A stretch of DNA of 34,596 nucleotides from a virus. Taxonomy: Duplodnaviria; Heunggongvirae; Uroviricota; Caudoviricetes. The translations under genes and the position numbers were made by a program. The DNA is taken from IMG/VR virus record IMGVR_UViG_2541047860_000003, positions 1 through 34,596 of that record. One strand, given 5' to 3'. Below, in pieces: positions 11,744-30,440 of this stretch. Position 1 is the first letter of the stretch, and every line of letters begins with the position of its first letter. The notes under the pieces are model-generated. The model saw nothing but the letters and a program-made list of their open reading frames with translations. It did no database searches and was not told where the DNA came from.

Positions 11744-11744
11744 G

Positions 11745-12740: not shown

Positions 12741-12757
12741 TCTTGTGGAGAAAGTTG

Positions 12758-13135
12758 ATGCGTGATATTCAAATGGTTCTGGATCGTTGGGGAGCATGGG
12801 CGGCGAGTGATAGTTCAGGAGTAGACTATTCTCCTATAGCTGCTGGGTTTAAAGGGCTTCTTCCCTATACAAGCAAAACACGTCAGGCATGTTCAGATAG
12901 TGATGCATTAATTATTGAAAGTTGTCTTGCTCGTCTAAGGCAAAAAAGGCCGGACGAACATTCGCTTCTTGTTGCCCATTATCTATACGGTATCTCTAAA
13001 AGAAAGCTCGCCAAGGCTCGTAAAAAGGATGAGAAACTAATACGCATTGAGATACAGATGGCTGAGGGGTTTATTGATGGCTGCCTATCGATGTTGGAAA
13101 TTAGTCTAGAGATGGACCCCGAAGTTAAAGATTGA
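12758..13135 (+). CDS. Late-gene antiterminator Q (QuuD / phage 21-type)
   Basis: MRDIQMVLDRWGAWAASD...IAAGFKGLLPY matches the QuuD-type Q N-terminus as recalled; ATG at 12758 after GGAG SD. Confidence 0.75.
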   Translation: MRDIQMVLDRWGAWAASDSSGVDYSPIAAGFKGLLPYTSKTRQACSDSDALIIESCLARLRQKRPDEHSLLVAHYLYGISKRKLAKARKKDEKLIRIEIQMAEGFIDGCLSMLEISLEMDPEVKD

Positions 13136-13141
13136 TTATTG

Positions 13142-13164
13142 AAGCCCGATTACTCGGGCTTTTG
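13142..13164. terminator. Hairpin terminator shared by Q (+) and the convergent 339-aa gene (-)
   Basis: AAGCCCGA-TTAC-TCGGGCTT followed by TTTG on the plus strand; the 339-aa gene stop codon lies in the loop. Confidence 0.6.
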
Positions 13165-14169
13165 TTCCACATCTCGAACATAGAGAATTACTGCTGACTT
13201 AATGTCACCATCGACGTGTTTTGCGTTAATGCTCAAATGTACAGGCTTTCTTTCCCACTCAGCTCGCTGCAATGCTTCTTTGTTTCCGGATTCATCAAGG
13301 AAAACATCCTGAACTACGCAGGTTAGACGTTGGTCGGTATCTACGCGTCGGACCTTAACTTTGAAACTCTCTGGGTCAGTATTATTGACTTCTTCAATTC
13401 GGTAAATACCATCAATCCTCATTTCTGATGAACGTCTACGAGCATTCGTAACCAACTCTTTCGCCATTTCAGAATCAATAGTAACGCCATCAATTTGAGC
13501 GTTATCTGAACGCACAAAGGATTTGACCATTTGGGTTTTAGCGTCATACGACATACGGTCCATGTTATCGAGAAGTGGTTTTTCCGCAATCATTTCTGAA
13601 ATAACCCGCAGGCGTTTAGTTTCTTGTTCGCTCATGATCTGCATAGTCCGGAGATGTTCTTTCTCTCCATCCTTAGCAATTTCTGCAAGGCGAATATCTT
13701 TGCGGTTGTCCAAGAACCGTTTAAATACTGTTACTCCGCCCCAGATGACTGCTGCGCCGAGAACAGTAAACATGATCTCAGTTGCGTTCATTTTACCAAC
13801 AAGTTCCTGTGTGAGTTTGGTTAAAAAGCCATCAATATTGATTTCTACTATTGAAGAACCTTGTTCTACCGTAACTTCTATTTCTAGGGCATCAAGTTCT
13901 TCTTTGGTCAGTTTGCGGACGTCAGGGACACCGTACTTGGCAAGGGCATATGATTTGTTGATTTGAGCTTGCATTTCAACAAATCCCTTCATAACTGAAG
14001 GTGTTAGCGATCTGTTGAATTTTTCACCGGTTAATCTGATGGTAAGGTTTGGCCATCCGTTGAAACTTAAACTGTCAGGTAAACCATAACCATCAAGATA
14101 GCTTTCAAGCAAATCGAAGGCTTGCTGCTCAGATTCAATGTCTACATGAATCTCATCAAACTTATCCAA
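13150..14169 (-). CDS. Hypothetical 339-aa single-pass membrane protein (reverse-oriented cargo between Q and lysis genes)
   Basis: Long ORF on the opposite strand to all flanking late genes; TTG start preceded by GAGGA with 7-nt spacer; one hydrophobic segment near the middle (ATEIMFTVLGAAVIWGGVTVF); AT-richer than neighbours; no recognisable catalytic motif. Confidence 0.6.
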   Translation of the reverse strand: MDKFDEIHVDIESEQQAFDLLESYLDGYGLPDSLSFNGWPNLTIRLTGEKFNRSLTPSVMKGFVEMQAQINKSYALAKYGVPDVRKLTKEELDALEIEVTVEQGSSIVEINIDGFLTKLTQELVGKMNATEIMFTVLGAAVIWGGVTVFKRFLDNRKDIRLAEIAKDGEKEHLRTMQIMSEQETKRLRVISEMIAEKPLLDNMDRMSYDAKTQMVKSFVRSDNAQIDGVTIDSEMAKELVTNARRRSSEMRIDGIYRIEEVNNTDPESFKVKVRRVDTDQRLTCVVQDVFLDESGNKEALQRAEWERKPVHLSINAKHVDGDIKSAVILYVRDVEQKPE

Positions 14170-14341
14170 AAGTATGTCCTCATTCTAAGCCAACTGTCAC
14201 CGTGAGGTTTGGCAACGCCTGCTTTATTTTTCGTTTTAAGCTGTGTGGCAAAAAAATAATGGAAAAACAGATAAAAATCACTAACGCGGTCCGCATTTTC
14301 TAGATTACTGTGTTAAGAGTGGTTACTTCGCCACGCAGCTT

Positions 14342-14366
14342 AAACCCGCCGTCGAGCGGGTTTTGT
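14342..14366 (+). terminator. tR'-like terminator downstream of the presumed late promoter
   Basis: AAACCCGC-CGTCGA-GCGGGTTT followed by TTTGTC, about 150 bp upstream of the holin; PR' -35/-10 elements could not be placed with confidence. Confidence 0.45.
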
Positions 14367-14515
14367 CATTTCTGGGCCTTGGTATTCGTTGGGCTTGGTC
14401 TCTCTAGTACTTATCCATTGGCTCGGCTTCTTTTACGTTTCCGCTTCTGGTTTGCGGTTCGTGGTACTCCCTCAATTTGCACCTCCTGTATCGGCGAGGT
14501 GAGAGATAACTACAA

Positions 14516-14842
14516 ATGCCTCATAACCCAAATACTTGGCTGGAGTTGGTCCAGAGCTGGTGGCGTGGAGACACGCCGCTGGGCGCAGTAATTATGTCGA
14601 TCGTTATGGCTGGCTTGCGCATTGCCTATTTTGGCGGTGGTGGTGGCTGGAAGCGAAAAACGCTCGAGATTTTGCTCTGTGGCGCTCTGACACTGACTTT
14701 TGCATCCGCTCTTGAGTATGTCGGATGGCCTAAATCACTTTCTGTTGCCATTGGTGGTGGAGTGGGGCTGATCGGTGTCGATGCTATTCGTGGGGCAGCA
14801 ATGCGAGTAATCGGTAACAAATTTGGTGGCTCTAAGGAGTAA
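14516..14842 (+). CDS. Holin (lambda S-like topology)
   Basis: 108 aa with hydrophobic helices, a GGGGG turn and a charged C-terminus; immediately precedes the R-Rz-Rz1 genes. Confidence 0.6.
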   Translation: MPHNPNTWLELVQSWWRGDTPLGAVIMSIVMAGLRIAYFGGGGGWKRKTLEILLCGALTLTFASALEYVGWPKSLSVAIGGGVGLIGVDAIRGAAMRVIGNKFGGSKE

Positions 14843-14845
14843 TTT

Positions 14846-15322
14846 ATGCAGGTACTAAATTCCCAGCGTAAAGCTTTCCTTGATATGGTGGCTTGGTCAG
14901 AAGGAACGGATAACGGGCGACAACCGACACGTAACCACGGTTATGATGTTATTGTTGGTGGCAAACTGTTCACTGATTACTCCGATCACCCTCGCAAACT
15001 TGTCACGCTAAACCCCAAACTCAAATCAACAGCCGCCGGACGTTACCAGCTTCTTTCACGCTGGTGGGATGCCTACCGTAAGCAGCTTGCTCTGAAAGAC
15101 TTCTCTCCGAAAAGCCAGGACGCTGTGGCATTGCAGCAGATTAAGGAGCGTGGCGCTTTACCGATGATTGATCGCGGTGATATTCGTCAGGCAATTGACC
15201 GTTGCAGCAATATCTGGGCTTCACTGCCGGGCGCTGGTTATGGTCAGTTCGAGCATAAGGCTGACAGCCTGATTGCAAAATTCAAAGAAGCAGGCGGAAC
15301 GGTCAGAGAGATTGAGGTATGA
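14846..15322 (+). CDS. Endolysin, lambda R-type lytic transglycosylase
   Basis: 158 aa; [35 protein letters not shown]...[20 protein letters not shown] is near-identical to lambda R as I recall it. Confidence 0.9.
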
Positions 15323-15780
15323 GCAGAGTAACGGCGATTATTTCCGCTCTGGTTATCTGCATCATCGTTTGCTTGTCATGGGCTGTTAATCATTACCGCG
15401 ATAACGCCATTACCTACAAAGCCCAGCTCGACAAAAATGCCAGAGAACTGAAGCTGGCGAACTCGACAATTACTGACATGCAGATGCGTCAGCGTGATGT
15501 TGCTGCGCTCGATGCAAAATACACGAAGGAGTTAGCTGATGCGAAAGCTGAAAATGATGCTCTGCGTGATGATGTTGCCGCTGGTCGTCGTCGGTTGCAC
15601 ATCAAAGCAGTCTGTCAGTCAGTGCGTGAAGCCACCACCGCCTCCGGCGTGGATAATGCAGCCTCCCCCCGACTGGCAGACACCGCTGAACGGGATTATT
15701 TCACCCTCAGAGAGAGGCTGATCACTATGCAAAAACAACTGGAAGGAACCCAGAAGTATATTAATGAGCAGTGCAGATAG
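15319..15780 (+). CDS. Rz i-spanin
   Basis: N-terminal TM segment plus coiled-coil; close to lambda Rz; start overlaps the R stop. Confidence 0.85.
15539..15721 (+). CDS. Rz1 o-spanin lipoprotein (embedded in Rz, +1 frame)
   Basis: Lipobox LVVVGC followed by the Pro-rich [21 protein letters not shown] stretch characteristic of lambda Rz1. Confidence 0.8.
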
Positions 15781-15811
15781 CGCTGCCCATATCGATGGGC
15801 AACTCATGCAA

Positions 15812-16105
15812 TTATTGTGAGCAATACACCCGCGCTTCCAGCGGAGTATAAATGCCTAAAGTAATAAAACCGAGCAATCCATTTACGAATGTTTGCTGGG
15901 TTTCTGTTTTAACCACATTTTCTGCGCCGCCACAAATTTTGGCTGCATCAACAGTTTTCTCCTGTCCAATTCCCGAAACGAAGAAATGATGGGTGATGGT
16001 TTCCTTTGGTGTTACTGCTGTCGGTTTGTTTCCAACAGTAAACGTCTGTTGAGCACATCCTGTAATAAGCATTGCCAGAGCGGCAGAAAACAACATTTTT
16101 TTCAT
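15812..16105 (-). CDS. bor: Bor lipoprotein (serum-resistance moron)
   Basis: 97 aa from ATG at 16105 (AGGA SD); MKKMLFSAALAMLITGCAQQTFTV...EARVYCSQ matches lambda Bor. Confidence 0.85.
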   Translation of the reverse strand: MKKMLFSAALAMLITGCAQQTFTVGNKPTAVTPKETITHHFFVSGIGQEKTVDAAKICGGAENVVKTETQQTFVNGLLGFITLGIYTPLEARVYCSQ

Positions 16106-16285
16106 CTTATTATCCTGCATTGTTAAAAACGGCAGAATCCTATGTGACAACAATTAAACGATAGTTAAATGGATTGATGAAAATTAAAACTATATAGGTG
16201 TACGGTCAGACTATTGGAGGTAGTCAGGATTTGAATGTCAGTCTGTTGTCGGCATTCTGGCAATGCAATTTGGATAAAGCGGGGA

Positions 16286-16408
16286 TTAAAAAGATAGAGG
16301 CGAGCCGGTCAGGTAGAAATGACTCAGGCTCAAAGTGAAGCGGAAAAGGTCTGTGGCACAAGCTGATGCAGCCATAATTACAGCCTGATGATTTGTGGAA
16401 TGAAACAT
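16286..16408 (-). CDS. Possible 40-aa small ORF with strong SD
   Basis: ATG preceded by AAGGAGG with 6-nt spacer; MFHSTNHQAVIMAASACATDLFRFTLSLSHFYLTGSPLSF; not in the ORF track (below 60 aa); speculative. Confidence 0.25.
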   Translation of the reverse strand: MFHSTNHQAVIMAASACATDLFRFTLSLSHFYLTGSPLSF

Positions 16409-16630
16409 GTTGAACCTCCTTAATTGATGTTATTCGAGTGATGAAGGCATTCTGTCCTTCTATAGTGTCCAGTAAATCAAACAGGAAACTTGTCCAACGT
16501 GTTGGACAAGCCTCTCCATTAGTGAGTTGTATTGATCACAACTCTACAAAGAATTCATTACTGGGTAGATGAAAATAGTTTCACGATGAATGGAGGAGGC
16601 TATGTCGGTGGCTTCTTCATTGGAGTACAT

Positions 16631-16981
16631 ATGCCATCACGAATCCCAAAAGCCTGCCGTGTTCGTGGCTGCCGCCATACCACCACAGACCCGTCAGGCT
16701 ACTGCGAAAGCCACAAAAGCGAAGGCTGGAGGCAATACAAGCCAGGCCAGTCCCGTCATCAGCGCGGCTACGGTTCGAAATGGGATGCTATCCGTGAACG
16801 TGTACTGAAGCGTGACAAAGGCCTGTGTCAGTTATGTCTGCGTGGTGGTGTGGTACGTGAGGCGAAAACCGTTGACCACATCATCCCTAAAGCGCATGGC
16901 GGTACAGATGCCGACAGTAATCAGCAGAGCCTGTGCTGGCCGTGCCATAAGGCGAAGACGGCCCGTGAACGGTTGAAGTGA
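16631..16981 (+). CDS. HNH endonuclease (packaging-associated)
   Basis: CQLCLRGGVVREAKTVDHIIPKAHGGTDADSNQQSLCWPCHKAKT HNH/zinc motif; directly upstream of terminase genes as in HK97-type packaging modules; ATG at 16631 after GGAG. Confidence 0.75.
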   Translation: MPSRIPKACRVRGCRHTTTDPSGYCESHKSEGWRQYKPGQSRHQRGYGSKWDAIRERVLKRDKGLCQLCLRGGVVREAKTVDHIIPKAHGGTDADSNQQSLCWPCHKAKTARERLK

Positions 16982-17107
16982 TAATAATTCTCAACTGTCT
17001 GCGAGGGAGGGGCGGGTCAAATCCCTGTGACCTGACGTCTTCCGGACTGCCCGCCCCATCGTTTTTTTATACCCGCGAAAAATGAAATTTAACCAGGAGT
17101 GCCGCAT

Positions 17108-17602
17108 ATGGCTGGAACGGCGGGGCGTTCCGGGCGTCGCCCCAAGCCAACGGCGCGCAAGGCGCTGGCCGGAAACCCCGGCAAGCGAGCCCTGAATAAA
17201 GATGAACCTGTTTTTACGCCCATCAAAGGTGTTGAGCCACCGGAGTGGTTCGCTGAAGAAGATCTCCCTCTCGCTACGATCATGTGGCAACTGACAACTA
17301 AAGAACTCTGCGGTCAGGGCCTGCTGTGCGTGACTGACCTCGCGGTGCTTGAGCGGTGGTGCGTGGCCTACGAGTTCTGGCGACGTGCCGTGAAAAATAT
17401 TGCCAGACAGGGCAACACCATCACCGGTGCAATGGGCGGTATGGTCAAAAATCCGGAGCTGACCGCCAAAAAAGAACAGGAGTCCGAGATGAGCAGTACG
17501 GGGGCAATGCTCGGACTCGACCCCAGCAGCCGCCAGCGTCTGATTGGCCTGGCGGGGCAGAAGAAAGCCACTAACCCGTTTCTGAAAATCATCGAATCAT
17601 GA
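17108..17602 (+). CDS. Terminase small subunit (P27-like)
   Basis: 165 aa, basic N-terminus ([22 protein letters not shown]) typical of P27-family TerS; AGGAG SD; immediately upstream of TerL. Confidence 0.65.
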
Positions 17603-19332
17603 GCCGGAAATCTTACCCCAACGTAAATGCTGCCAATCAGTATGCCCGTGATGTCGTGCGCGGAAAGATTGTGGCCTGCCAGTTTGTGATTCAGGCCTGC
17701 CAGCGCCATCTTGATGACCTAATGGAGGAAAAAAGTAAGTCGTTTCGTTACCGCTTCGACAAGGACCTGGCTGAACGGGCCGCGAAATTTATTCAGCTGT
17801 TGCCGCACACCAAGGGTGAGTGGGCATTTAAGAGGATGCCCATCACGCTGGAGCCGTGGCAGCTCTTTGTGATCTGCTGCGCGTTTGGCTGGGTCAATAA
17901 AGGCTCCCGGCTGCGCCGCTTCCGTGAGGTGTATACCGAAATCCCCCGTAAGAATGGCAAATCGGCAATCTCTGCCGGTGTCGCCCTGTATTGTTTTGCC
18001 TGTGATAACGAGTTCGGCGCGGAAGTGTATTCCGGTGCCACGACGGAGAAACAGGCATGGGAAGTCTTTCGTCCGGCAAGACTGATGTGTAAACGCACAC
18101 CCATGCTGACGGAAGCGTTCGGGATTGAGGTTAACGCCTCAAACATGAACCGTCCGGAGGATGGTGCGCGTTTTGAACCGCTGATCGGTAACCCCGGTGA
18201 TGGTTCATCACCCCACTGTGCGGTGGTGGATGAATATCACGAGCACGCCACAGATGCGCTTTACACCACGATGCTTACCGGGATGGGGGCGCGACGTCAG
18301 CCACTGATGTGGGCTATCACTACCGCCGGGTACAACATTGAGGGGCCGTGCTACGACAAACGGCGGGAAGTCATCGAGATGCTCAACGGCTCGGTGCCTA
18401 ACGATGAACTGTTCGGGATCATCTATACCGTTGATGAAGGTGACGACTGGACCGACCCGCAGGTGCTGGAAAAAGCCAATCCAAATATTGGCGTGTCGGT
18501 TTATCGCGAATTTTTGTTAAGTCAGCAGCAGCGTGCGAAAAATAACGCCCGTCTGGCAAACGTCTTTAAAACAAAACACCTCAATATCTGGGTGTCGGCG
18601 CGTTCGGCGTATTTCAACCTGGTGAGCTGGAAGAGCTGCGAGGATAAATCACTGACCCTTGAGCAGTTCGAGGGGCAGCCGTGCATTCTGGCCTTTGACC
18701 TGGCGCGTAAGCTGGATATGAACAGCATGGCGCGACTTTATACCCGCGAGATTGACGGTAAAACGCATTACTACAGTGTAGCCCCGCGTTTCTGGGTACC
18801 GTATGACACGGTGTACAGCGTCGAGAAAAATGAAGATCGACGGACAGCCGAACGCTTTCAGAAATGGGTGGAAATGGGCGTTCTGACCGTTACCGATGGT
18901 GCGGAGGTGGATTATCGCTACATCCTCGAGGAGGCCAAAGCGGCGAACAAAATCAGCCCGGTCAGTGAGTCACCTATCGACCCCTTCGGGGCGACCGGGC
19001 TGTCGCATGACCTTGCTGATGAAGACCTGAACCCCATCACCATCATTCAGAACTACACCAACATGTCCGATCCGATGAAAGAGCTGGAAGCGGCGATTGA
19101 ATCGGGGCGCTTTCATCATGACGGCAATCCCATCATGACCTGGTGTATCGGCAACGTGGTCGGCAAAACCATTCCGGGTAACGATGATGTGGTGAAGCCT
19201 GTCAAGGAGCAGGCGGAAAACAAAATCGATGGTGCAGTTGCGCTGATTATGGCGGTTGGCAGAGCCATGCTGTACGAGAAAGAAGACACGCTGTCTGACC
19301 ACATTGAGTCCTATGGGATCCGCTCGCTTTAA
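17599..19332 (+). CDS. Terminase large subunit
   Basis: 577 aa, size and architecture of Terminase_1-type TerL; Walker A-like region near the N-terminus ([13 protein letters not shown]); precedes the portal. Confidence 0.85.
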
Positions 19333-19343
19333 CTGAGGTAATT

Positions 19344-19526
19344 ATGATCATGCTGATTCTCGCGCCTCTGGTGGGCGTGCTGGGGGCGCTTTTGCTGGCG
19401 TATGGTGCCTGGCTGATTTATCCCCCGGCGGGGTTTGTTGTTGCCGGGGCGTTGTGCCTGTTCTGGTCGTGGCTGGTGGCGCGATATCTCGACCGTACAC
19501 AGTCGTCTGTCGGCGGAGGTAAATAG
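19344..19526 (+). CDS. Small hydrophobic protein (two predicted TM helices)
   Basis: 60-aa ORF with GAGG SD between terminase and portal. Confidence 0.35.
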
Positions 19527-20569
19527 TGTTCTTTTCGGGATTATTTCAACGAAAAAGTGACGCACCGGTGACCACGCCAGCAGAGCTGGCGGATGCCATC
19601 GGGTTGTCCTACGACACCTATACCGGAAAGCAGATCAGCAGCCAGCGGGCCATGCGACTGACGGCGGTTTTTTCCTGTGTCAGGGTGCTGGCAGAGTCGG
19701 TCGGGATGTTGCCCTGCAATCTGTATCACCTGAACGGCAGCCTGAAACAGAGAGCCACCGGCGAGCGTCTGCATAAGCTGATCTCCACGCATCCCAATGG
19801 CTATATGACGCCGCAGGAGTTCTGGGAGCTGGTGGTCACCTGTCTGTGCCTGCGGGGAAACTTTTACGCCTACAAAGTGAAAGCATTTGGCGAAGTGGCT
19901 GAACTGCTGCCCGTCGATCCCGGCTGTGTGGTACCGAAGCTTAACAGTAGCTGGGAGCCGGTCTATCAGGTCACATTCCCGGACGGCTCCACGGATGTAC
20001 TGAGCCAGGAAGATATCTGGCATGTGCGCACGCTGACGCTGGACGGTCTGGTGGGACTGAATCCCATCGCCTATGCCCGCGAGGCAATATCGCTGGCAGC
20101 TGCGACCGAAGAGCACGGGGCCAGACTGTTCAGCAATGGTGCGGTGACGTCCGGTGTGTTGCGTACAGAGCAGACGCTGTCGGATCAGGCTTATGAGCGC
20201 CTGAAGAAAGATTTTGAGGAGCGTCACACCGGGCTTGGCAATGCTCACCGCCCGATGATCCTTGAGATGGGGCTGGACTGGAAGTCGATGGCGCTGAACG
20301 CCGAGGACAGCCAGTTCCTGGAAACCCGCAAGTTTCAGCTTGAAGAAATCTGTCGTCTGTTCCGGGTGCCATTGCACATGGTGCAGAACACCGATCGCGC
20401 CACCTTCAACAATATCGAAGAGCTGGGGCTGGGATTTATCAACTATTCACTGGTGCCGTATCTGACCCGCATTGAGCAACGGATCAACACCGGACTGGTA
20501 CGAAAAAGTAAGCAGGGCGTTTATTACGCCAAATTTAACGCCGGGGCGTTACTGCGCGGGGATATGAAG

Positions 20570-21908
20570 CATAAGCGCTAACTTAAGGGTTGAACCATCT
20601 GAAGAATGCGACGCCTCGGTGCCTCGTTAAGACGATGCCTCGCGTTCTTCAATTGCGTTTTGTAGGCTGTCAGGGATACTGTCCCACGAATGGCCACCTG
20701 TAAGCTCCAGATGACCATTTTTGTTATTCTCCACAACGAGTTAGTTCTTCTTTTCGGATCCGGCACTTCTGGGGGGGAAATCCAGCGATGGCTGGATTAT
20801 GTCGTCAATTAAAAATGCGGCGAGTAGATTAGCAAATATCCACGCTTTCGCGAGTTCAGGTTCCTTTGCACGCAAAGCATCCAGGTGCAGCAAACTTTTG
20901 AGCCGCTTAAAAGCCAGTTCAATTTGCCATCGCAGACGGTAACAATCAGCCACTTGCTCTGCTGAATATTCATCTTCCGGTAATGATGTTAGCAATAGCA
21001 CATGGCCCGCTGCTTCCAGCGTTTCCGCCTGAACTACTCGTCCTTTTCGACGATTCTCGCTGAGCAGTCGGGTTTTACTGATTAATGCTTTTTCGGGAGG
21101 AAGTGATACGGCAATGAGACGTGCCGGAAAGGGAGCTCCGGCTTTTTTATTACCTGAATTGCCTATCATTACAGTGGTTTCACCGTTCTTACCGCAATCC
21201 AGCCCGCGCAGAAAACCCATCATGTCAAAGCGCATTCCTTCTGCAGTTAACCAGCGCAATCCTCGCCAGTGAACCCGGACGATATAATCAGCTTCTCCAA
21301 AAGCAAGTGAGCGGATACATTCGGGACGCGAACCGAATCCCCGGTCAGCAATGCGTATCTCGTCTGCCGTTTGCGCAAATCGGTCCAGCCGTTCAGCGTC
21401 TCTGCTGTCGGTTAGCTCAAAATCAGTGAACTGACAGGTATGAGGATCATATCCCATATGTAGTCGCCATTCAGCGCTGCCGCCCCCGGGCGCACTGATT
21501 GCTGTTCCATCGACAAGACGCAATCTCTTTCCGCTTGTACAACCCGTAACTGCGGCGCGTACAGCAAGTGTTTGTGCGGCAAGTATGCCAAACCAGTCGG
21601 CGGCATTCCGCAGCCGCTTCAGGAGAGCCACGTCAGATAATGTTGCAACGTCATGGAGCTGAGCCCATGCAGTGACTTCACGTAATGACATCCCCCCGGG
21701 GCCGTAAGCCAGCCCCAGACGTAGCAGAGTTGCAGCATCACGAATTTCGCGGCGGCGGGTTAGAGCCCCGGCATTACGTGCCGAAGTATCCAGTTCTTCG
21801 GGCTTACCAATATGGGCCAGAATTGCTGACCAGTTATCGTGAGAGTAATTCATCGGCACGTTAAATCATATCAGGCGTAATACCACAACCCTTAAGTTAG
21901 CGCTTATG
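20570..21908 (-). mobile_element. IS186 (IS4 family), complete copy
   Basis: Perfect 23-bp terminal inverted repeats CATAAGCGCTAACTTAAGGGTTG / CAACCCTTAAGTTAGCGCTTATG; flanked by 10-bp direct duplication GGATATGAAG (20560..20569 and 21909..21918). Confidence 0.9.
20741..21859 (-). CDS. insL: IS186 transposase
   Basis: 372-aa ORF; translation NYSHDNWSAILAHIGKPEELDTSARNAGALTRRREIRD... matches the IS186 transposase as I recall it. Confidence 0.9.
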   Translation of the reverse strand: MPMNYSHDNWSAILAHIGKPEELDTSARNAGALTRRREIRDAATLLRLGLAYGPGGMSLREVTAWAQLHDVATLSDVALLKRLRNAADWFGILAAQTLAVRAAVTGCTSGKRLRLVDGTAISAPGGGSAEWRLHMGYDPHTCQFTDFELTDSRDAERLDRFAQTADEIRIADRGFGSRPECIRSLAFGEADYIVRVHWRGLRWLTAEGMRFDMMGFLRGLDCGKNGETTVMIGNSGNKKAGAPFPARLIAVSLPPEKALISKTRLLSENRRKGRVVQAETLEAAGHVLLLTSLPEDEYSAEQVADCYRLRWQIELAFKRLKSLLHLDALRAKEPELAKAWIFANLLAAFLIDDIIQPSLDFPPRSAGSEKKN

Positions 21909-22093
21909 GGATATGAAGTCCCGTTTTGAAGCCTACGCCACCGGGATCAACTGGGGAATTTACTCTCCCAATGACTGCCGCGACCTGGAAGATATGAATC
22001 CGCGTCCCGGTGGTGATGTTTATCTCACACCGATGAACATGACCACGAAACCCTCCGATGGCAGTAAAGCCGGTAAGCAGAAGGATAACGCCA

Positions 22094-22744
22094 ATGCAGA
22101 CGAAACAACGTCTTGATGTACCGCTGAGTCTGAAATCTGTCAGTGACTCCGGTGAGTTTGAAGGGTATGGCTCCGTCTTTGGTGTAAAGGACAGCCACGA
22201 TGATGTGGTGATGTCCGGGGCATTTGCTGCTTCCCTGCGGGCGTGGAGTGACAGAAAAGCGTTACCTGCGCTGCTCTGGCAGCACCGCATGGATGAGCCC
22301 ATCGGTGTTTACACCGAAATGAAGGAAGACGATGTCGGGCTTTACGTCAGGGGGCGGTTGCTCATTGATGATGATCCCCTGGCAAAACGCGCACATGCAC
22401 ACATGAAGGCCGGTTCGTTAACCGGCCTTTCTATTGGGTACGTCCTGAAGGACTGGGAATACGACCGGACGAAAGAAGCCTTTCTGCTGAAAGAAATCGA
22501 CCTCTGGGAAGTCAGTCTGGTGACATTCCCGTCTAACGACGAGGCGCGGATCAGCGACGTCAAGAACGCACTGGCCCGCGGGGAAATCCCCGAACAGAAA
22601 AAAATCGAAAGAGTCCTGCGTGATGTCGGACTCTCCCGTACCCAGGCCAAAGCATTCATGGCAGGGGGCTATGGCGCACTGTCCCTGCGCGACGCTGAGG
22701 ATGTGGGCTCTGCACTGAATGCACTGAAAAATCTGAACTTCTAA
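22094..22744 (+). CDS. Prohead protease (HK97 family)
   Basis: Located between portal and major capsid; about 216 aa; ATG at 22094 after AAGGA. Confidence 0.75.
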   Translation: MQTKQRLDVPLSLKSVSDSGEFEGYGSVFGVKDSHDDVVMSGAFAASLRAWSDRKALPALLWQHRMDEPIGVYTEMKEDDVGLYVRGRLLIDDDPLAKRAHAHMKAGSLTGLSIGYVLKDWEYDRTKEAFLLKEIDLWEVSLVTFPSNDEARISDVKNALARGEIPEQKKIERVLRDVGLSRTQAKAFMAGGYGALSLRDAEDVGSALNALKNLNF

Positions 22745-22758
22745 TCAGGAGAAATACG

Positions 22759-23964
22759 ATGGCGGTTGATATTAAAGATGTCGAACAGGTCGCGCAGGAG
22801 CTGCAGCAGAAGTTTGACGACTTCAAAGCAAAGAACGACAAGCGCGTGGATGCGATTGAGCAGGAAAAAGGCAAACTTGCCGGGCAGGTGGAAACCCTGA
22901 ACGGGAAACTCAGCGAGCTGGAAAACCTCAAAAGCGATCTTGAAAAAGAGCTGCTTGAGCTGAAACGTCCGGCAGGTGGTGCGCAAAATAAACTGGCCAC
23001 CGAGCATAAAGAGGCGTTTGTGGGCTTCCTGCGTAAAGGCCGTGAAGACGGTCTGCGCGATCTGGAGCGTAAGGCATTGCAGGTGGGCACCGATGAAGAC
23101 GGTGGCTACGCCGTGCCGGAAGAACTGGATCGCAACATTCTTAACCTGCTGAAAGATGAAGTGGTGATGCGTCAGGAAGCCACGGTGATCACCGTTGGTG
23201 GTTCCGACTACAAAAAACTGGTGAATCTGGGCGGCACGGCTTCCGGATGGGTTGGCGAGACTGACGCGCGCTCCCAGACTGCCACCTCAAAACTGGGGCT
23301 GATTGAACCTTTCATGGGGGAAATCTACGGTAACCCGCAGGCCACCCAGAAAATGCTGGATGATGCCTTTTTCAACGTGGAGGCCTGGATCAACAGCGAG
23401 CTGGCAACCGAATTTGCCGAACAGGAAGAAATTGCCTTTACCACCGGCGATGGTACCAAGAAGCCGAAAGGGTTCCTGGCGTATGAATCCACGGATGAAA
23501 CCGATAAGGTCCGGGCGTTCGGCAAACTTCAGCATATTGTATCCGGCGACGCGACTGCGGTGACCGCAGACGCCATTATCAAACTGATTTACACGCTGCG
23601 AAAGGCACACCGCACTGGCGCGAAGTTCATGATGAACAACAACAGCCTGTTTGCCATCCGTCTGCTGAAAGACACCGAGGGTAACTATCTGTGGCGTCCG
23701 GGGCTGGAACTGGGGCAGCCGTCCTCTCTGGCGGGTTACGGTATCGCTGAAAACGAACAGATGCCGGATATCGCCGCTGATGCGAAAGCCATTGCATTTG
23801 GTAACTTCAAACGGGGTTACACCATCGTTGACCGTATCGGCACCCGCATTCTGCGTGACCCGTACACCAATAAACCGTTTGTCGGTTTTTATACCACCAA
23901 GCGCACCGGCGGGATGCTGGTCGATTCGCAGGCCATCAAACTGCTGAAGATTGCAGCGGCGTAA
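22759..23964 (+). CDS. Major capsid protein (HK97 fold)
   Basis: 401 aa with N-terminal coiled-coil scaffold-like delta domain then capsid core; follows the protease. Confidence 0.85.
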   Translation: MAVDIKDVEQVAQELQQKFDDFKAKNDKRVDAIEQEKGKLAGQVETLNGKLSELENLKSDLEKELLELKRPAGGAQNKLATEHKEAFVGFLRKGREDGLRDLERKALQVGTDEDGGYAVPEELDRNILNLLKDEVVMRQEATVITVGGSDYKKLVNLGGTASGWVGETDARSQTATSKLGLIEPFMGEIYGNPQATQKMLDDAFFNVEAWINSELATEFAEQEEIAFTTGDGTKKPKGFLAYESTDETDKVRAFGKLQHIVSGDATAVTADAIIKLIYTLRKAHRTGAKFMMNNNSLFAIRLLKDTEGNYLWRPGLELGQPSSLAGYGIAENEQMPDIAADAKAIAFGNFKRGYTIVDRIGTRILRDPYTNKPFVGFYTTKRTGGMLVDSQAIKLLKIAAA

Positions 23965-23971
23965 TCACTCA

Positions 23972-23998
23972 GGGGCGCGGAACCGCGCCCCCTGTTCT
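23972..23998 (+). terminator. Hairpin downstream of the capsid gene (partial terminator)
   Basis: GGGGCGCGG-AAC-CGCGCCCC followed by TGTTCTG. Confidence 0.4.
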
Positions 23999-24013
23999 GA
24001 CGGGTGAAGAATC

Positions 24014-24214
24014 ATGATCCTGAAACAAGATCTGAAATGGTCACCGGACGGTATGCGTGTTGAGGTCATTCGGGCCGGTGAGTATGACGACGGGGCGCTT
24101 CCTGCCCGGGTGCAGGAGATTGCACTTCAGGCCGGGTTAGCAGAGCGCGGAACCAGTGCAAAAAGCAGTAAAGCGGCAAAAGAGAAAAAAGCCACGACCA
24201 GTAAAGAGGGCTGA
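24014..24214 (+). CDS. Hypothetical small head-module protein
   Basis: 66-aa ORF with Lys/Ala-rich tail; weak RBS. Confidence 0.3.
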   Translation: MILKQDLKWSPDGMRVEVIRAGEYDDGALPARVQEIALQAGLAERGTSAKSSKAAKEKKATTSKEG

Positions 24215-24216
24215 GT

Positions 24217-24540
24217 ATGCTTCTGACAATGGAAGAGATTAAAGCCCAACTCCGGCTGGATGAGGATTTCGATGCTGATGACCGCCATCTGCAACTGCTG
24301 GCCTGTGCGGCGCAAAAGCGGACGGAAACGTATCTGAACCGGAAGCTCTATGCACCGGATGAAACCATTCCGGACAGCGATCCGGACGGGCTGCACCTGT
24401 CGGATGATATTCGTCTGGGGATGCTGATGCTTATCAGCCATTTTTACGAAAACCGCTCTTCGGTTACGGAAGTGGAGAAACTCGACATGCCGCAGAGTTT
24501 TGGCTGGCTTGTCGGCCCGTATAGGTACTTTCCGCAATGA
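24217..24540 (+). CDS. Head-tail connector (gp6-like)
   Basis: 107 aa; position after capsid and translational coupling to the next gene; family by recollection. Confidence 0.55.
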   Translation: MLLTMEEIKAQLRLDEDFDADDRHLQLLACAAQKRTETYLNRKLYAPDETIPDSDPDGLHLSDDIRLGMLMLISHFYENRSSVTEVEKLDMPQSFGWLVGPYRYFPQ

Positions 24541-24947
24541 AAATTCGTCAGGCGCAGACCAGCGCAACCTACATTCTGCCGGACCCCGGCGAACTGAATA
24601 AACGCGTCCTGATCCGCCAGCGGGTGGATATGCCCGCGGATAACTTTGGCGTGGAGCCTCAATACCCGGTTGCGTTCCGGGCATGGGCGAAGGTTGTCCA
24701 GACCAGTGCCACCACCTGGCAGGAAACCGCGCAGACCGGAGACGCCATCACCCATTACATCACCATTCGCTACCGCCGGGGGATCACCGCTGATTATGAG
24801 GTGGTCTGCGGTGACAGTGTGTACCGGGTGAAACGTCAGCGCGATCTGAACGGGGCGCGGCGCTTTCTGCTGCTGGAGTGTACGGAACTGGGCGAATTTA
24901 CGCAGAGTCACGGAGGCAGCAATGGCGACTCCCTTTTTTCACGTTGA
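24537..24947 (+). CDS. Head closure / head-tail adaptor protein
   Basis: Position and size within the head-completion block. Confidence 0.45.
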   Translation: MKIRQAQTSATYILPDPGELNKRVLIRQRVDMPADNFGVEPQYPVAFRAWAKVVQTSATTWQETAQTGDAITHYITIRYRRGITADYEVVCGDSVYRVKRQRDLNGARRFLLLECTELGEFTQSHGGSNGDSLFSR

Positions 24948-25428
24948 TGTTCAGCAGCCCGCGGAGATGCGCTTTAACCGCGCACGTGTCCGGCGGGCGT
25001 TTGTCACGATTGGGCAGCGTCATATGCGTGATGCCCGTCGGCTGGTGATGCGCCGTGCGCGGTCGGCACCGGGTGAAAACCCCGGTTATCAGACCGGACG
25101 CCTGGCTCGTTCGATTGGTTACATGGTGCCGAGAGCCAGTAAAAAGCGAGCCGGTTTTATGACACGCATTGCCCCTAACCAGCGCAACGGGAAGGGGAAC
25201 CGGATGATCTCTGGTGACTTCTATCCGGCGTTTCTGTTTTTTGGTGTCCGGGGAGGAGCAAAACGTCGTCGTAGTCATCATCGTGGTGCATCCGGTGGCA
25301 GCGGCTGGCGGCTGGCTCCACGTAATAACTTTATGGTGGAAACTCTTGAAAAGAACCGCAGCTGGACACGCTATTTTCTGGCGCGGGAATTGCGTAAATC
25401 ACTGAAGCCGGAGCGACGACACAGATGA
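24922..25428 (+). CDS. HK97 gp10-like neck protein
   Basis: Position; basic, Arg-rich 168-aa ORF. Confidence 0.45.
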   Translation: MATPFFHVDVQQPAEMRFNRARVRRAFVTIGQRHMRDARRLVMRRARSAPGENPGYQTGRLARSIGYMVPRASKKRAGFMTRIAPNQRNGKGNRMISGDFYPAFLFFGVRGGAKRRRSHHRGASGGSGWRLAPRNNFMVETLEKNRSWTRYFLARELRKSLKPERRHR

Positions 25429-25985
25429 AACTGACGCCTGTTATTGCTGCGCTGCGTGCCCGCTGCCCGTATTTTGAAAACCGGGTGGCAGGCGCGGCAC
25501 AGTTCAAAAATCTGCCGGAGGTCGGAAAGCTGAGACTCCCGGCGGCGTATGTGGTACCGGGTGATGACTCTCCGGGAGAAAACAAAAGCCAGACCGACTA
25601 CTGGCAGGAGCTGAAAGAGGGCTTCTCCGTGGTTGTCATACTGAGTAACTGGCGTGATGAGCGCGGTCAGTTTGCCTCGTATGATGTGGTGGACGATGTC
25701 CGGCAGATGCTCTTTAAGGCCCTGCTGGGCTGGAACCCGGAAGCGTGCGGTAACCCGATTACCTATGACGGCGGCACGCTGCTGGATCTGAATCGTCATG
25801 AGCTGATTTATCAGTTCGATTTTTCGGTCATCAGCGAGCTGACTGAAGACGATACCCGCCAGCAGGATGAGCTGAACAGTCTGGATGAACTGCGAACGCT
25901 GGCGATTGATGTTGATTATCTCGATCCCGGTAACGGGCCTGACGGCGATATCGAACATCACACCGAAATAACCCTTCCTTCCTGA
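25425..25985 (+). CDS. Putative tail terminator / neck protein (Mu gpK-like position)
   Basis: 186-aa ORF immediately upstream of the small ORF and sheath. Confidence 0.4.
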   Translation: MKLTPVIAALRARCPYFENRVAGAAQFKNLPEVGKLRLPAAYVVPGDDSPGENKSQTDYWQELKEGFSVVVILSNWRDERGQFASYDVVDDVRQMLFKALLGWNPEACGNPITYDGGTLLDLNRHELIYQFDFSVISELTEDDTRQQDELNSLDELRTLAIDVDYLDPGNGPDGDIEHHTEITLPS

Positions 25986-25993
25986 GGATCATC

Positions 25994-26164
25994 ATGTTTG
26001 TGAAACCTGTTAAAGGGCGGTCGGTACCTGACCCTGCCCACGGCGACCTTTTGCCCGCCGAGGGGCGAAATGTTGATGAGAACAACTACTGGCTGCGCCG
26101 TGAAGCAGTGGGTGATATCCGGCGCGTGAATGAAAAGGTGAATACCGATGACGATAAGCTTTAA
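25994..26164 (+). CDS. Small protein preceding tail sheath (DUF2635-like)
   Basis: 56-aa ORF MFVKPVKGRSVPDPAHGDLLPAEGRNVDENNYWLRREAVGD... with GAGGA SD; small ORFs of this kind precede Mu-type sheath genes. Confidence 0.35.
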   Translation: MFVKPVKGRSVPDPAHGDLLPAEGRNVDENNYWLRREAVGDIRRVNEKVNTDDDKL

Positions 26165-27644
26165 CACCATTCCGTCGAATACGCTGGTTCCGCTGTTTTA
26201 TGCGGAAATGGATAACTCGGCGGCGAATACTGCACAGGACAGCGGAGCATCACTGCTGATTGGTCATGCCAATAACGGTGCAGAGATTGTTGCCAACAGT
26301 CTGGTGCTGATGCCGTCGGCAGACTATGCACGTCAGATTTGTGGTGCGGGAAGTCAGCTGGCGCGTATGGTCGAGGCTTATCGCCAGACCGACCCGTTTG
26401 GTGAGCTGTATGTGATTGCCGTTCCTGAATCCACGGGCGCGGCGGCAACGGTTACGCTGACGGTGACCGGGGCGGCAACCGAAACCGGCACGGTAAATGT
26501 TTATGTGGGACGTACCCGCGTGCAGGCACCGGTGACCAACGGCGATAACGTCGCGACGATTGCCAGCAGTATCAAGGATGCCATCAATGCCGTTCCGGCT
26601 CTGCCGTTTACGGCCTCATCTTCGGCAGGCGTGGTCACGCTGACCGCGCGTCATAAGGGGCTTTGCGGGAATGAAATTCCTGTCAGCCTCAATTACTACG
26701 GCTTTGGTGGGGGCGAAGTGCTGCCAGCGGGCGTACAGATTGCCGTGGCGGCGGGGACCGCCGGAACGGGCGCTCCTGTTCTCACCGGCGCGGTGGCTGC
26801 AATGGCGGATGAGCCGTTTGATTATATCGGTCTGCCGTTCAACGACACTGCCTCCGTTAACACGCTGGTGACCGAGATGAACGATACCAGCGGTCGCTGG
26901 AGCTATGCGCGTCAGCTGTATGGTCATGTGTATACGGCAAAGATCGGCACGCTGTCAGAACTGGTGACCGCAGGTGATCAGTTTAACCAGCAGCACATTA
27001 CCCTGGCGGGGTACGAAAAAGAGACCCAGACGCCTGCCGACGAGCTGGCGGCAAGCCGTACCGCCCGCGCAGCGGTGTTTATTCGCAACGATCCGGCACG
27101 TCCCACGCAGACCGGTGAGCTGGTGGGTATGCTGCCTGCGCCGAAGGGGAAACGGTTCACGATGACCGAACAACAGACCCTGCTGTCTCATGGCGTGGCA
27201 ACGGCGTATGTCGAAAGCGGGGTACTACGCATTCAGCGTGATGTCACCACGTACAGGAAAAACGCTTACGGGGTTGCGGATAACAGCTACCTCGACAGTG
27301 AGACGCTGCATACCAGCGCGTATGTACTGCGCAAACTGAAATCCGTCATTACCAGTAAGTACGGGCGTCACAAGCTTGCCAGTGACGGTACCCGCTTTGG
27401 TCCCGGTCAGGCGATTGTCACCCCGGCGGTGATCAAAGGGGAACTGCTGGCAACCTACCGTCAGCTTGAGCGTGCGGGGATCGTGGAAAACTACGAACTG
27501 TTTAAGCAGTACCTGGTTGTGGAGCGTGATGCCAGCGATCCGAACCGCCTGAACACGCTGTTCCCGCCTGACTATGTTAACCAGTTGCGTGTCTTTGCCG
27601 TGGTTAACCAGTTCCGTCTTCAGTATTCAGAGGAGTCTGCATAA
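26148..27644 (+). CDS. Contractile tail sheath protein (Mu gpL-like)
   Basis: 498 aa; N-terminus FNTIPSNTLVPLFYAEMDNS resembles the Mu L sheath N-terminus; followed by a tube gene. Confidence 0.8.
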   Translation: MTISFNTIPSNTLVPLFYAEMDNSAANTAQDSGASLLIGHANNGAEIVANSLVLMPSADYARQICGAGSQLARMVEAYRQTDPFGELYVIAVPESTGAAATVTLTVTGAATETGTVNVYVGRTRVQAPVTNGDNVATIASSIKDAINAVPALPFTASSSAGVVTLTARHKGLCGNEIPVSLNYYGFGGGEVLPAGVQIAVAAGTAGTGAPVLTGAVAAMADEPFDYIGLPFNDTASVNTLVTEMNDTSGRWSYARQLYGHVYTAKIGTLSELVTAGDQFNQQHITLAGYEKETQTPADELAASRTARAAVFIRNDPARPTQTGELVGMLPAPKGKRFTMTEQQTLLSHGVATAYVESGVLRIQRDVTTYRKNAYGVADNSYLDSETLHTSAYVLRKLKSVITSKYGRHKLASDGTRFGPGQAIVTPAVIKGELLATYRQLERAGIVENYELFKQYLVVERDASDPNRLNTLFPPDYVNQLRVFAVVNQFRLQYSEESA

Positions 27645-28000
27645 TGGCCCGTATCGGGGGAACCTGTTATTTCAAAATTGACGGTCAACAGCTATCGCTG
27701 ACCGGCGGCATTGAGGTGCCCATGAACAGGACGGTCAATGATGACATCATCGGCCTGGACGGTTCAGTGGACCGCAAGGAAACTCACCGTGCGCCTTATG
27801 TCAAAGGGACTTTCAAGGTGCCGAAGAATTTTCCGGTGAACAAAATCACCTCGTCTGATGAGATGACTATCACTGCCGAGCTGGCGAACGGTCAGGTCTA
27901 TGTACTGTCGTCTGCCTGGCTGCACGGCGAAGCGAACCATAATGCCGAAGAAGGTACGGTTGATCTTGAGTTCCACGGTGAAGAAGGGGATTACCAGTAA
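27644..28000 (+). CDS. Tail tube protein
   Basis: 118 aa directly after the sheath, start overlapping the sheath stop. Confidence 0.7.
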   Translation: MARIGGTCYFKIDGQQLSLTGGIEVPMNRTVNDDIIGLDGSVDRKETHRAPYVKGTFKVPKNFPVNKITSSDEMTITAELANGQVYVLSSAWLHGEANHNAEEGTVDLEFHGEEGDYQ

Positions 28001-28269
28001 TGAAAGAGCTTGAGTTAAAGAAACCGATTACTGCTCATGGCGAGACACTCTCCGTACTGGAGTTTGATGAGCCTACCGGGAAGGATGTCCGCGAGCTGGG
28101 GTATCCCTACCAGATGAATCAGGATGAGTCCGTCAGACTTCTGGCGCATGTGGTGTCGAAATACATTGTGCGGCTGGCGAAAGTGCCGCAAAGCTCTGTC
28201 GACCAGATGTCTCCGGCAGACCTGAATGCAGCGGCGTGGCTTGTGGCTGGTTTTTTCCTCCAGGCCTGA
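28000..28269 (+). CDS. Tail assembly chaperone (G-like)
   Basis: 89 aa after the tube; the slippery heptamer T_TTT_TTC sits in its last codons, allowing a -1 shift into the following frame. Confidence 0.55.
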   Translation: MKELELKKPITAHGETLSVLEFDEPTGKDVRELGYPYQMNQDESVRLLAHVVSKYIVRLAKVPQSSVDQMSPADLNAAAWLVAGFFLQA

Positions 28270-29783
28270 CGGCTGAATACCTCACTGATCGCTTCTTTGA
28301 CTGCGCCAGCTACTGGCGCATTAATCCCTTCGAATTGCTGAATTTGCCGTTCAGTAAAGTTGGAGCGAAAGCGCGGATTGCCAGGGTGCTCGATAAGCAT
28401 GGTCTTGTCGGTGATTATCGCGATGTGACCCGATATAGCATTGCCTCTGGTTATCCTTTCGACGGTGATGAGGTGACCGCCGAAATGGCAGAGTGTGAAA
28501 ACCTGTTTTCTGTGCCGGTTGACGTAATGATCACAAAGGTACAGGAAGATAAAGTCAGTGGCGTAGAGGTCGTAAAGGCGTGGAAATCTCTGCCTACCGC
28601 CGAAAATATCCAATGGGTATTTGAGCGCATCGGAGCCATGCCCGCTCGTAACATGATGTCGGCAAAAATTGAGCTTCTCAGCCTGGACGGCTGCAACTCT
28701 GGTGTTAGCGAGGTATCAGCGACCAGCCAGTTATTGAGCGAGTGCGCTCGCCGTGGAGTTCCCGACAAGAACTACGCAGCACACCTGGAATCAATCGCAG
28801 AACGCAATGCGTTTCACCCCATCAATGAGATTCTCAAATTCCGGCAATGGGATGGCAAAAACCGCGTTGCTGATGTGCTAGGCGCTATCAAGACTGATGA
28901 TGACCCATATTCTCATCAAATCCTGCTGAAATGGCTGGCTGGCGCGATTTGCGCCATTGATAGCGGCAGCGTGGCTATTAAGTTTTGCCCGGTCATTCAT
29001 AGCAAGGCCAACAACTGGTACAAGTCGCAGCTACCGGAGCGCCTGTTTAATCTGGTTGAAGGTGCTTTTGGTGGCGCTATCGGCATCCCGGAGCCATCGA
29101 ACAAAGACGACCTGATGAAATCAATTAGCGCCTGGTGTTATGAATTTGGCGAACTGGCTGGAATGACTAAGCGTGACGCAGAGGCTATCAAAAGCTTTAT
29201 CCCGATGAGTGAGGATATTTTCCGGTTGCCGTATGGCCGGTGTAATCTTTCCAAGCCGCGTCAGACGGTGTACATCGGCACAACTAACCGTGATGACTTC
29301 ATTCATGATGAGACAATCGCTACACGCTTCCCGGTTATTAAGCTCGCCTCACCGATTGACATCGAGCGTATCAATAAAGCACTTGGCTACGAGTTCGACG
29401 GCAACAGGGCCGTACTGACTGACCGCGAACAACTGATCCAATTCTGGCTTGAGGTTCGCCAGATGGTTGCAGACGGCCTTAATTACGTTATTGACGGTGA
29501 GTTGCTGGCTATTACCAGAGGGAAGAACAAAGAGTTCGAGTCGAGAACCAGCTATGACACCACGCTGCTTGATACGCTGGCGATGCACGATGGCCGCACA
29601 TATCAGACCACAACGCAGATATGCAATGAAATCGGCGTGCCGGTTGATAAGCGAGTACATGTGGGCAGGGCTCTCAACAAGCTTTCGGATAATGGTGTTA
29701 TTGAAAAGAAAGTGACAGGTGGAGTGGCTTACTACACCTTCCCCACGCGGGTTAACTATTTACCAACCCGAAATCCCGAATAA
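28236..29783 (+). CDS. VirE-like protein with degenerate P-loop and C-terminal winged helix; N-terminus continuous with the chaperone -1 frame (possible fusion)
   Basis: 515-aa ORF; central region ...KSFIPMSEDIFRLPYGRCNLSKPRQTVYIGTTNRDDFIHDETIATRFPVIKL resembles the VirE / primase C-terminal family, but the Walker A position reads HSKANNWYKS; C-terminal 60 aa are similar to the C-terminus of the 118-aa protein at 30441..30797. Confidence 0.45.
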   Translation: MACGWFFPPGLTAEYLTDRFFDCASYWRINPFELLNLPFSKVGAKARIARVLDKHGLVGDYRDVTRYSIASGYPFDGDEVTAEMAECENLFSVPVDVMITKVQEDKVSGVEVVKAWKSLPTAENIQWVFERIGAMPARNMMSAKIELLSLDGCNSGVSEVSATSQLLSECARRGVPDKNYAAHLESIAERNAFHPINEILKFRQWDGKNRVADVLGAIKTDDDPYSHQILLKWLAGAICAIDSGSVAIKFCPVIHSKANNWYKSQLPERLFNLVEGAFGGAIGIPEPSNKDDLMKSISAWCYEFGELAGMTKRDAEAIKSFIPMSEDIFRLPYGRCNLSKPRQTVYIGTTNRDDFIHDETIATRFPVIKLASPIDIERINKALGYEFDGNRAVLTDREQLIQFWLEVRQMVADGLNYVIDGELLAITRGKNKEFESRTSYDTTLLDTLAMHDGRTYQTTTQICNEIGVPVDKRVHVGRALNKLSDNGVIEKKVTGGVAYYTFPTRVNYLPTRNPE

Positions 29784-29799
29784 CCAGAACACAATCCAA

Positions 29800-29824
29800 C
29801 CCTGCTACGGCAGGGTTTTTTTTG
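29800..29824 (+). terminator. Strong intrinsic terminator
   Basis: CCCTGC-TACG-GCAGGG followed by nine T residues. Confidence 0.75.
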
Positions 29825-30414: not shown

Positions 30415-30440
30415 ATAACCAACAATGCAGAGATGCGACG

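Follow-up and report, generated by a model that had tools for sequence, protein, structure and literature searches.

The window, that is, the whole stretch of 34,596 nt that was analysed, carries a prophage whose attL side is marked by the tRNA-Thr (CGU) gene thrW (1369–1444, plus strand), which adjoins proA. The integrase gene follows at 1459–2622 on the minus strand. The head module is ordered as terminase, portal, prohead protease and major capsid. The genes for the terminase small subunit (17099–17602; PF05119) and large subunit (17599–19332, plus strand; PF03354/PF20441) are followed by ymfR (19344–19526) and the portal gene. The HK97-family prohead protease gene (22094–22744, plus strand, with its start as annotated in the relative L002; TIGR01543, 6e-47) comes next in the late operon, and its start overlaps the portal stop by 23 nt. 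The HK97-family major capsid protein is encoded at 22759–23964 on the plus strand (TIGR01554, 8e-116). The integrase, head and lysis genes are intact as ORFs up to the tail assembly chaperone.

The portal gene is found in two parts on the plus strand, a 5′ part with codons 1–348 (19526–20569) and a 3′ part with the last 65 codons and the stop (21919–22116). The present ORF (19526–20581) runs 12 nt into an insertion sequence, gains His-Lys-Arg and stops at 20579–20581, giving a 351-aa product. Downstream of the element, a 67-aa ORF in the original portal frame is possible from an ATG at 21913. Joining 19526–20569 to 21919–22116 yields 1242 nt, or 413 codons and a stop with no stop inside, so that removal of the element together with one copy of its target duplication restores the frame, as had been claimed. 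The rejoined portal scores 260.2 bits against TIGR01537 (cut-off 112.05) and 361.7 bits against PF04860 (4.4e-108; cut-off 39.1), and residues 27–385 align to residues 41–403 of the HK97 portal chain 8cez_A (E = 8.7e-52). The 3′ part aligns to about residues 367–403 of the HK97 protein, and the break at residue 348 falls within the alignment. These profile scores and the match to 8cez_A and TIGR01537 across the break bear out the original prediction that IS186 splits a portal gene of the HK97 family.

The interrupting element is a complete IS186 of 1339 bp (20570–21908) on the minus strand, so that it runs antisense to both the portal gene and the late operon. It is identical to IS186A of E. 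coli K-12 MG1655 (NC_000913.3, 15390–16728) at 1339 of 1339 positions without gaps, and the IS copy of the relative L001 is also 100% identical to it. The terminal inverted repeat CATAAGCGCTAACTTAAGGGTTG occupies 23 nt at 20570–20592 and its opposite arm 23 nt at 21886–21908; the arms are 100% complementary over these 23 nt, and pairing ends exactly at position 24. The completeness of the element and its perfect 23-bp repeats were thus correctly read from the start. Between the repeats, insL (20741–21853, minus strand) is a single uninterrupted ORF for a 370-aa DDE transposase of the IS4 family (PF01609, 1.6e-26; NF033592, 133 bits with a cut-off of 115 bits), and its DNA is identical to the L001 copy annotated as WP_001300563.1. 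With intact ends and an intact transposase, the copy is predicted to be transposition-competent. A terminator-like hairpin lies within IS186 on the plus strand (21123–21152), although such sites are just as numerous as expected by chance, and a scan of the IS186 region for promoters and terminators gave nothing above chance. With the element antisense, the protease and capsid genes that follow may be expressed at a lower level.

IS186 is flanked by the target-site duplication GGATATGAAG, with its left copy at 20560–20569 and its right copy at 21909–21918, and this sequence is present only at these two sites in the 34.6-kb window. A repeat finder stretches the duplication to 11 nt (GGGATATGAAG, 20559–20569 and 21908–21918), because the final base of the inverted repeat is also a G. 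Therefore a 10-bp duplication with a 1339-bp element and an 11-bp duplication with a 1338-bp element both fit, and the 10-bp duplication proposed earlier stands in this sense. An 11-bp duplication, GGGGTGCCCCC, has been reported for IS186B (PMC12102499).

The portal gene is one of several damaged parts of this prophage. Homology to the intact relative L004 ends at position 28358, directly after the tail assembly chaperone. In L004 the chaperone is followed by genes for the tape measure and a circularization protein, by four baseplate genes and ymfQ, and by one gene each for a fibre and for fibre assembly; the window prophage is without the genes for tape measure, DNA circularization protein, baseplate and tail fibres. 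In place of the tape measure, baseplate and fibre genes lies a foreign segment (28359–34337) with a VapE-domain ORF, DUF5681, ParA and an RHH/Arc-like gene; positions 30545–33903 of the segment match a 13-kb Shigella flexneri plasmid with 97% identity, and its final 135 bp are an IS5 end. An IS1 end (34338–34596) then runs off the window. L004 possesses a second thrW att core, and none is found within the window, which ends in IS1 at 34596; attR could lie farther right. Of the cargo genes, whose retention the original prediction had linked to the defective state, iss/bor also occurs in relatives with intact portals, and a PADLOC search of the unannotated cargo-like ORFs (13150–14169 on the minus strand, the VapE ORF, 5061–5741 on the minus strand, 5892–6326, 30441–30797 and 32006–32410) returned no match. 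The thrW prophage of the source strain is a multiply damaged remnant.

A comparison with E. coli strain C10 bears on the order in which this damage arose. The rejoined flanks of IS186 (3152 bp) are 100% identical to C10 in a single piece, which makes this strain a natural empty site, and at least 80% of the rejoined-flank query was found in one place in 1096 records. The empty-site alleles expected in related strains are therefore present by sequence comparison. Positions 6514–20569 differ from C10 by four mismatches and positions 21908–34337 by two (six SNPs in 26.5 kb); the mismatches cluster at 12080–12269 and 30072–30197, and none lies within 8 kb of IS186. C10 has the same truncation junction at 28358/28359, yet its portal gene of 1242 nt is intact. 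Since C10 shares the truncation, is nearly identical and has an uninterrupted portal, the IS186 insertion appears to be the later event. By parsimony, with C10 as the single comparison strain, the prophage was most likely tail-less before IS186 arrived. The intact portal of C10 might also be due to precise excision of IS186 in its lineage or to recombination with a different prophage copy.

The occupied site is rare. None of 5426 complete E. coli genomes has the occupied left junction (601 bp), the sole spanning match among them being a different, independent insertion, and neither the GTDB species representatives nor the JGI metagenomes contain the exact 35-nt occupied junction. One draft assembly and one read set were the only sources in which the junction was found. 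The assembly is GCA_000459435.1 of NCBI (scaffold KE701069.1), which encodes the 351-aa truncated product at a locus of 7056 bp that is found letter for letter in the window. The read set is SRR958452, of which a Logan contig crosses the left junction and extends 30 bp into the element; these reads are possibly from the same strain and maybe not independent. As the junction was found in these two sources only, the insertion looks young and private.

We consider it highly probable that IS186 entered an already tail-less, decaying prophage of the SfV/e14-like type. In the proposed sequence of events, the whole distal tail module and the attR side would have been replaced at an earlier step by plasmid-derived DNA and IS5/IS1 sequences. 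IS186 would then have transposed into a GGGG-N9-CCC target close to the 3′ end of the HK97-type portal gene in this prophage, integrated at thrW beside proA. In the IS4 family, staggered cuts are followed by repair, and cuts about 10–11 bp apart would have left the flanking GGATATGAAG duplication. The portal now ends after residue 348, within the conserved LLRGD-SR stretch, plus three residues encoded by the element. The insertion would be recent and probably neutral, in a prophage that could no longer form virions, and would represent one more step of decay and not the cause of domestication.

There is a small chance that the order was the reverse, with IS186 as the primary inactivating lesion of a functional prophage and the tail deletion and IS1/IS5 rearrangements coming afterwards. 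The portal gene is truly disrupted, and the integrity of the head, lysis and integrase ORFs up to the chaperone would agree with such an order. C10 speaks against it with an identical tail junction, six SNPs in 26.5 kb and an intact portal, and so do the rarity of the occupied junction, which makes the insertion seem young and private, and the fact that loss of the portal does not prevent excision. The original prediction had held that the insertion locked the element in as a defective prophage. This part is not supported, as the tail genes are missing too and C10 is truncated with an intact portal. Other virion-essential genes have been lost, with homology stopping at 28358. Moreover, a portal defect blocks head filling and DNA packaging, not excision; since the portal serves packaging, its loss does not lock a prophage in, and it is the loss of attR that would prevent excision. 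Because the prophage was already tail-less in the order that we favour, the insertion does not serve as a case of IS-driven prophage domestication. The main correction is thus to the order of events, and otherwise the finding matters little beyond annotation. The split portal is best annotated as one pseudogene interrupted by IS186.

Judged from its sequence, the truncated portal gene is very probably a null allele. The break lies inside the portal profiles of both Pfam and TIGRFAM, which extend to residues 373 and 379. It falls within a stretch (LLRGD/LLRAD...SR/AR) that is conserved among the window portal, HK97 gp3 and 9lbn gp1, and its HK97 counterpart is at about residue 366, inside the ordered model (32–398). 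About 32 of the separated last 65 residues align to ordered positions of the HK97 portal structure. Short C-terminal truncations are tolerated by some portals, and the 67-aa ORF has its own ATG in the original frame. A 348-residue fragment might thus still support head assembly, by itself or together with the 67-aa C-terminal product. We find this very improbable given a break inside the portal profiles, the conserved stretch and the ordered region of HK97, and with the tail genes absent it would have no bearing on virion production. That a scaffolder misplaced an IS186 copy in the portal gene was rejected as having a vanishingly small chance: the sequence comes from a draft scaffold and mis-joins classically arise at IS copies, but a mis-join would not make the precise 10–11-bp portal duplication at both junctions, a separate read assembly (Logan, SRR958452) spans the left one, and a comparable insertion, flanked by an 11-bp duplication of its own, is found in the closed chromosome of another strain.

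This second insertion adds a small point on the target choice of IS186, for which the consensus is (G)≥4 N3–6 (C)≥4. The rejoined portal gene contains only two GGGG-N(3–10)-CCC motifs, at nt 1033 and nt 1079. The motif at nt 1033 is the site occupied in the window, and that at nt 1079 corresponds to the site hit by an identical IS186 in strain CFIAFB20180511, 46 bp farther into a portal gene that is 82% identical. The gene has no other G-run/C-run motifs, and two independent insertions at these two fit the target preference of IS186, a consensus target for which is stated in the title of SaiSree, Reddy and Gowrishankar 2001 (J Bacteriol 183:6943, cited in PMC3045373). The window target GGGGATATGAAGTCCC is a loose match to this preference, with an N9 spacer and three Cs. 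The target of IS186A in K-12, GGGGATCACTCCCC, also follows the G-run/C-run pattern. The spacer of the window target is longer and its C run shorter than in K-12 IS186A (GGGG-N6-CCCC) or at the L001 site (GGGGG-N7-CCCC). We see a slim chance that in this portal family the two motifs at the 3′ end form a recurrent landing pad. If that were true, IS186 would be a systematic, sequence-directed inactivator of head assembly in SfV/e14-like prophages of E. coli, and prophage domestication would proceed by a host-encoded route instead of random decay.

Set against known systems, the insertion of IS186 into a decaying prophage is an ordinary late event of known biology. The prophage resembles the e14/SfV-like prophages of E. 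coli and Shigella, which combine an HK97-like head with a Mu-like tail and in which homologues of ymfL, ymfR, ymfQ and stfP are annotated. SfV integrates at thrW beside proA. Relatives likewise lie beside thrW and proA and show the full module order, whereas in the window copy the distal tail genes are gone and IS186, an IS5 fragment and IS1 are present. HK97 itself, with portal gp3 (PDB 8cez/8fql), shares the order of small and large terminase, portal, S78 protease and HK97-fold capsid. Its portal gene is whole, unlike the counterpart split at residue 348, and its tail is that of a siphovirus, whereas the window phage has a contractile Mu-like tail module with sheath and tube genes. With respect to IS186 of K-12 (IS186A/B/C, alias IS421; IS4 family), the element shows no difference and the insertion site alone is new. 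IS186 is said to have a hot spot at the lon promoter in E. coli B, reportedly described by SaiSree and colleagues. There, the same element likewise inactivates a gene by entering a G/C-run target. Insertion at lon is highly frequent and gives a selectable phenotype, whereas the portal site was found occupied in one strain, with no selective effect expected, and its adjoining motif in one of the 5426 complete genomes.

Removal of the IS186 together with one copy of the target duplication restored the reading frame of the portal gene, as the original prediction had stated. The rejoined gene (19526-20569 plus 21919-22116) is 1242 nt long, corresponding to 413 codons and a stop. Its product matches the Pfam family Phage_portal over residues 47-373 (4.4e-108) and scores 260 bits against the equivalog TIGR01537 portal_HK97, for which the cut-off is 112 bits. 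The suggested alignment to HK97-family portals also gave a match. The solved HK97 portal 8cez aligns over residues 27-385 (E = 8.7e-52) and thus spans the break at residue 348. The sequence at the break, LLRGDmkSR, reads LLRGDSASR in HK97 and LLRADSAAR in 9lbn, so the stretch is conserved in both solved homologues. The break falls near HK97 residue 366 and thus within the part of the HK97 portal that is ordered in the model (residues 32-398) (PMC10359639). The neighbouring genes encode a P27-type small terminase, a large terminase, ymfR, an S78/HK97 prohead protease and an HK97-fold major capsid protein, and the protease gene overlaps the portal stop by 23 nt. An HNH endonuclease gene (16532-16981) directly adjoins the small terminase gene on its upstream side. 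This arrangement is typical of HK97-like cos phages, in which the HNH protein helps terminase cleavage.

The predicted complete element with perfect inverted repeats was recovered. The 23-nt repeats, CATAAGCGCTAACTTAAGGGTTG, lie at 20570-20592 and 21886-21908, and the complementarity of the two arms is over exactly at position 24. The 1339 bp between the repeat ends are identical to IS186A of E. coli K-12 MG1655 (100% identity, gapless) and to the IS of E. coli CFIAFB20180511, annotated as "IS4-like element IS421 family transposase" (WP_001300563.1). The intact transposase ORF of 370 aa (20741-21853, minus strand) is above the cut-off for both PF01609 and NCBIfam NF033592. The 10-bp target duplication was likewise confirmed: GGATATGAAG is present at 20560-20569 and 21909-21918 and has no other copy within the window. 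Because a G closes the inverted repeat and another G precedes the left repeat, an 11-nt repeat flanking a 1338-bp IS is equally valid. IS186B is 1338 bp long with an 11-bp duplication, GGGGTGCCCCC (PMC12102499). IS186 itself is already known, and the present instance is ordinary.

The layout of the prophage alters how the insertion is to be read. The window starts within proA, followed by tRNA-Thr(CGU) (1369-1444) and a tyrosine integrase. The early, lysis and head regions look complete and are followed by the tail sheath, tube and tail assembly chaperone genes. In the intact relative prophage L004, the chaperone gene is followed by the tape measure gene, the DNA circularization protein gene, four baseplate genes, ymfQ, stfP and fibre assembly genes, with a second thrW att core far downstream of the last. 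Homology to L004 ends at 28358, between the chaperone and tape measure genes. Beyond this point are a VapE-domain ORF, DUF5681, ParA and an RHH gene, and 30545-33903 shares 97% identity with a 13.3-kb Shigella flexneri plasmid (NZ_CP055032.1). The distal tail module has been swapped for this plasmid-like segment (28236-34337, breakpoint 28358/28359). The annotated VapE ORF begins some 120 nt before the breakpoint; it is therefore chimeric, with its first ~41 codons derived from the phage. A 135-bp IS5 end from 34203 abuts an IS1 end from 34338, which runs off the window edge at 34596. No second thrW att core was found within the window. With the distal tail genes replaced and a single att core, no tail could be built and the window holds no attR, whatever the state of the portal.

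Empty-site alleles in related strains, another expectation of the original prediction, were found by database comparison. In the complete-genome E. coli collection, 1624 records match the 3152 bp of rejoined flanking sequence, and 1096 of these hold at least 80% of the query in one place. The match is 100.0% identical in a single piece in C10 (maximal score) and MS 119-7 (a little lower), and 99.9% identical in CFIAFB20190172; in all three the annotation gives an intact portal gene of 1242 nt (WP_000466255.1). The occupied junction was absent from 5426 complete E. coli genomes, the GTDB representatives and the JGI metagenomes. The exact truncated product was found in the NCBI draft assembly GCA_000459435.1 (scaffold KE701069.1), whose locus occurs unchanged within the window sequence and which is very probably its source, and in the Logan assembly of SRR958452, reading 30 bp into the IS.

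C10 differs from the window by four mismatches over 6514-20569 and two over 21908-34337. All six differences (26.5 kb) fall into two clusters of less than 200 bp, four in a DUF968 gene (12080-12269) and two in the plasmid-like segment (30072-30197), both far from IS186. This clustering is more suggestive of small patches of recombination or conversion than of point mutations at scattered sites. C10 shares the 28358/28359 junction and the plasmid-like segment with the window, yet its portal is intact. Its integrase arm has separately gone to IS1 at the position equivalent to 6514, and at the IS5/IS1 end (34203-34596) it runs on with different sequence. IS1 has thus cut back this one remnant in different ways in the two lineages. 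The simplest history is that the common ancestor was already tail-less, and that IS186 would later have entered the window lineage while IS1 caused the deletion in C10. Precise excision of IS186 in the C10 lineage would be less parsimonious, and no selection for such an event is expected.

Cut within its conserved domain, the portal would lack the last 65 residues, and head filling should fail as a result. The antisense IS186 may in addition reduce expression of the protease gene, which overlaps the portal translationally, and of the genes after it; a plus-strand terminator-like hairpin inside the IS (21123-21152) is no more than expected by chance. As the tail module was most likely lost beforehand, the insertion is probably without phenotype. 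The original interpretation is thus partly supported: the insertion and the split of the portal are real, but the proposed causal link to a defective prophage is not supported. Nor does it follow that the insertion locked the element in as a defective prophage, as excision should be unaffected by portal loss.

Downstream of the lysis cassette is a bor/iss (increased serum survival) lipoprotein gene (15812-16153, minus strand). Its retention has no tie to the insertion, as relatives whose portal is intact carry it too. An unannotated 339-aa ORF (13150-14169, minus strand) has no match in Pfam or PADLOC. It occupies a typical moron slot, with antiterminator Q on one side and the holin on the other. 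The contents of this slot vary among relatives; the relative L005 has three hypothetical genes there, and match summaries for other left-arm relatives list TIR-domain or KAP NTPase genes, which may occupy it. A 226-aa ORF (5061-5741, minus strand) covers the relatives' yfdP (120 aa) and a "frameshifted hypothetical protein", and may be the intact version of a gene that L004 and L005 carry as a pseudogene.

DDE transposases of the IS4 family cut the target with a stagger, and repair yields a duplication; the duplication at the portal would have arisen in this way. The target is GGGGATATGAAGTCCC in the window and GGGGATCACTCCCC for K-12 IS186A. CFIAFB20180511 carries an independent, sequence-identical IS186 (3349-4687 of locus L001, NZ_CM143727.1) in an 82%-identical portal gene, with the target GGGGGATTTATTCCCC, an 11-bp duplication GGATTTATTCC and the same orientation. 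In that prophage, the annotation also marks the major capsid gene as incomplete. This insertion is at a neighbouring GGGG...CCCC motif, equivalent to nt 1079 of the window's gene and 46 nt past the one used there (nt 1033); the 5' part of that portal is 48 nt longer as annotated. Apart from these two, the rejoined gene contains no GGGG-N(3-10)-CCC motif. A target preference of IS186 was reportedly described by SaiSree et al. in 2001 (title cited in PMC3045373). Both occupied sites fit this preference, and two cases among ~1600 genomes with this portal family point to a preference rather than a hot spot.
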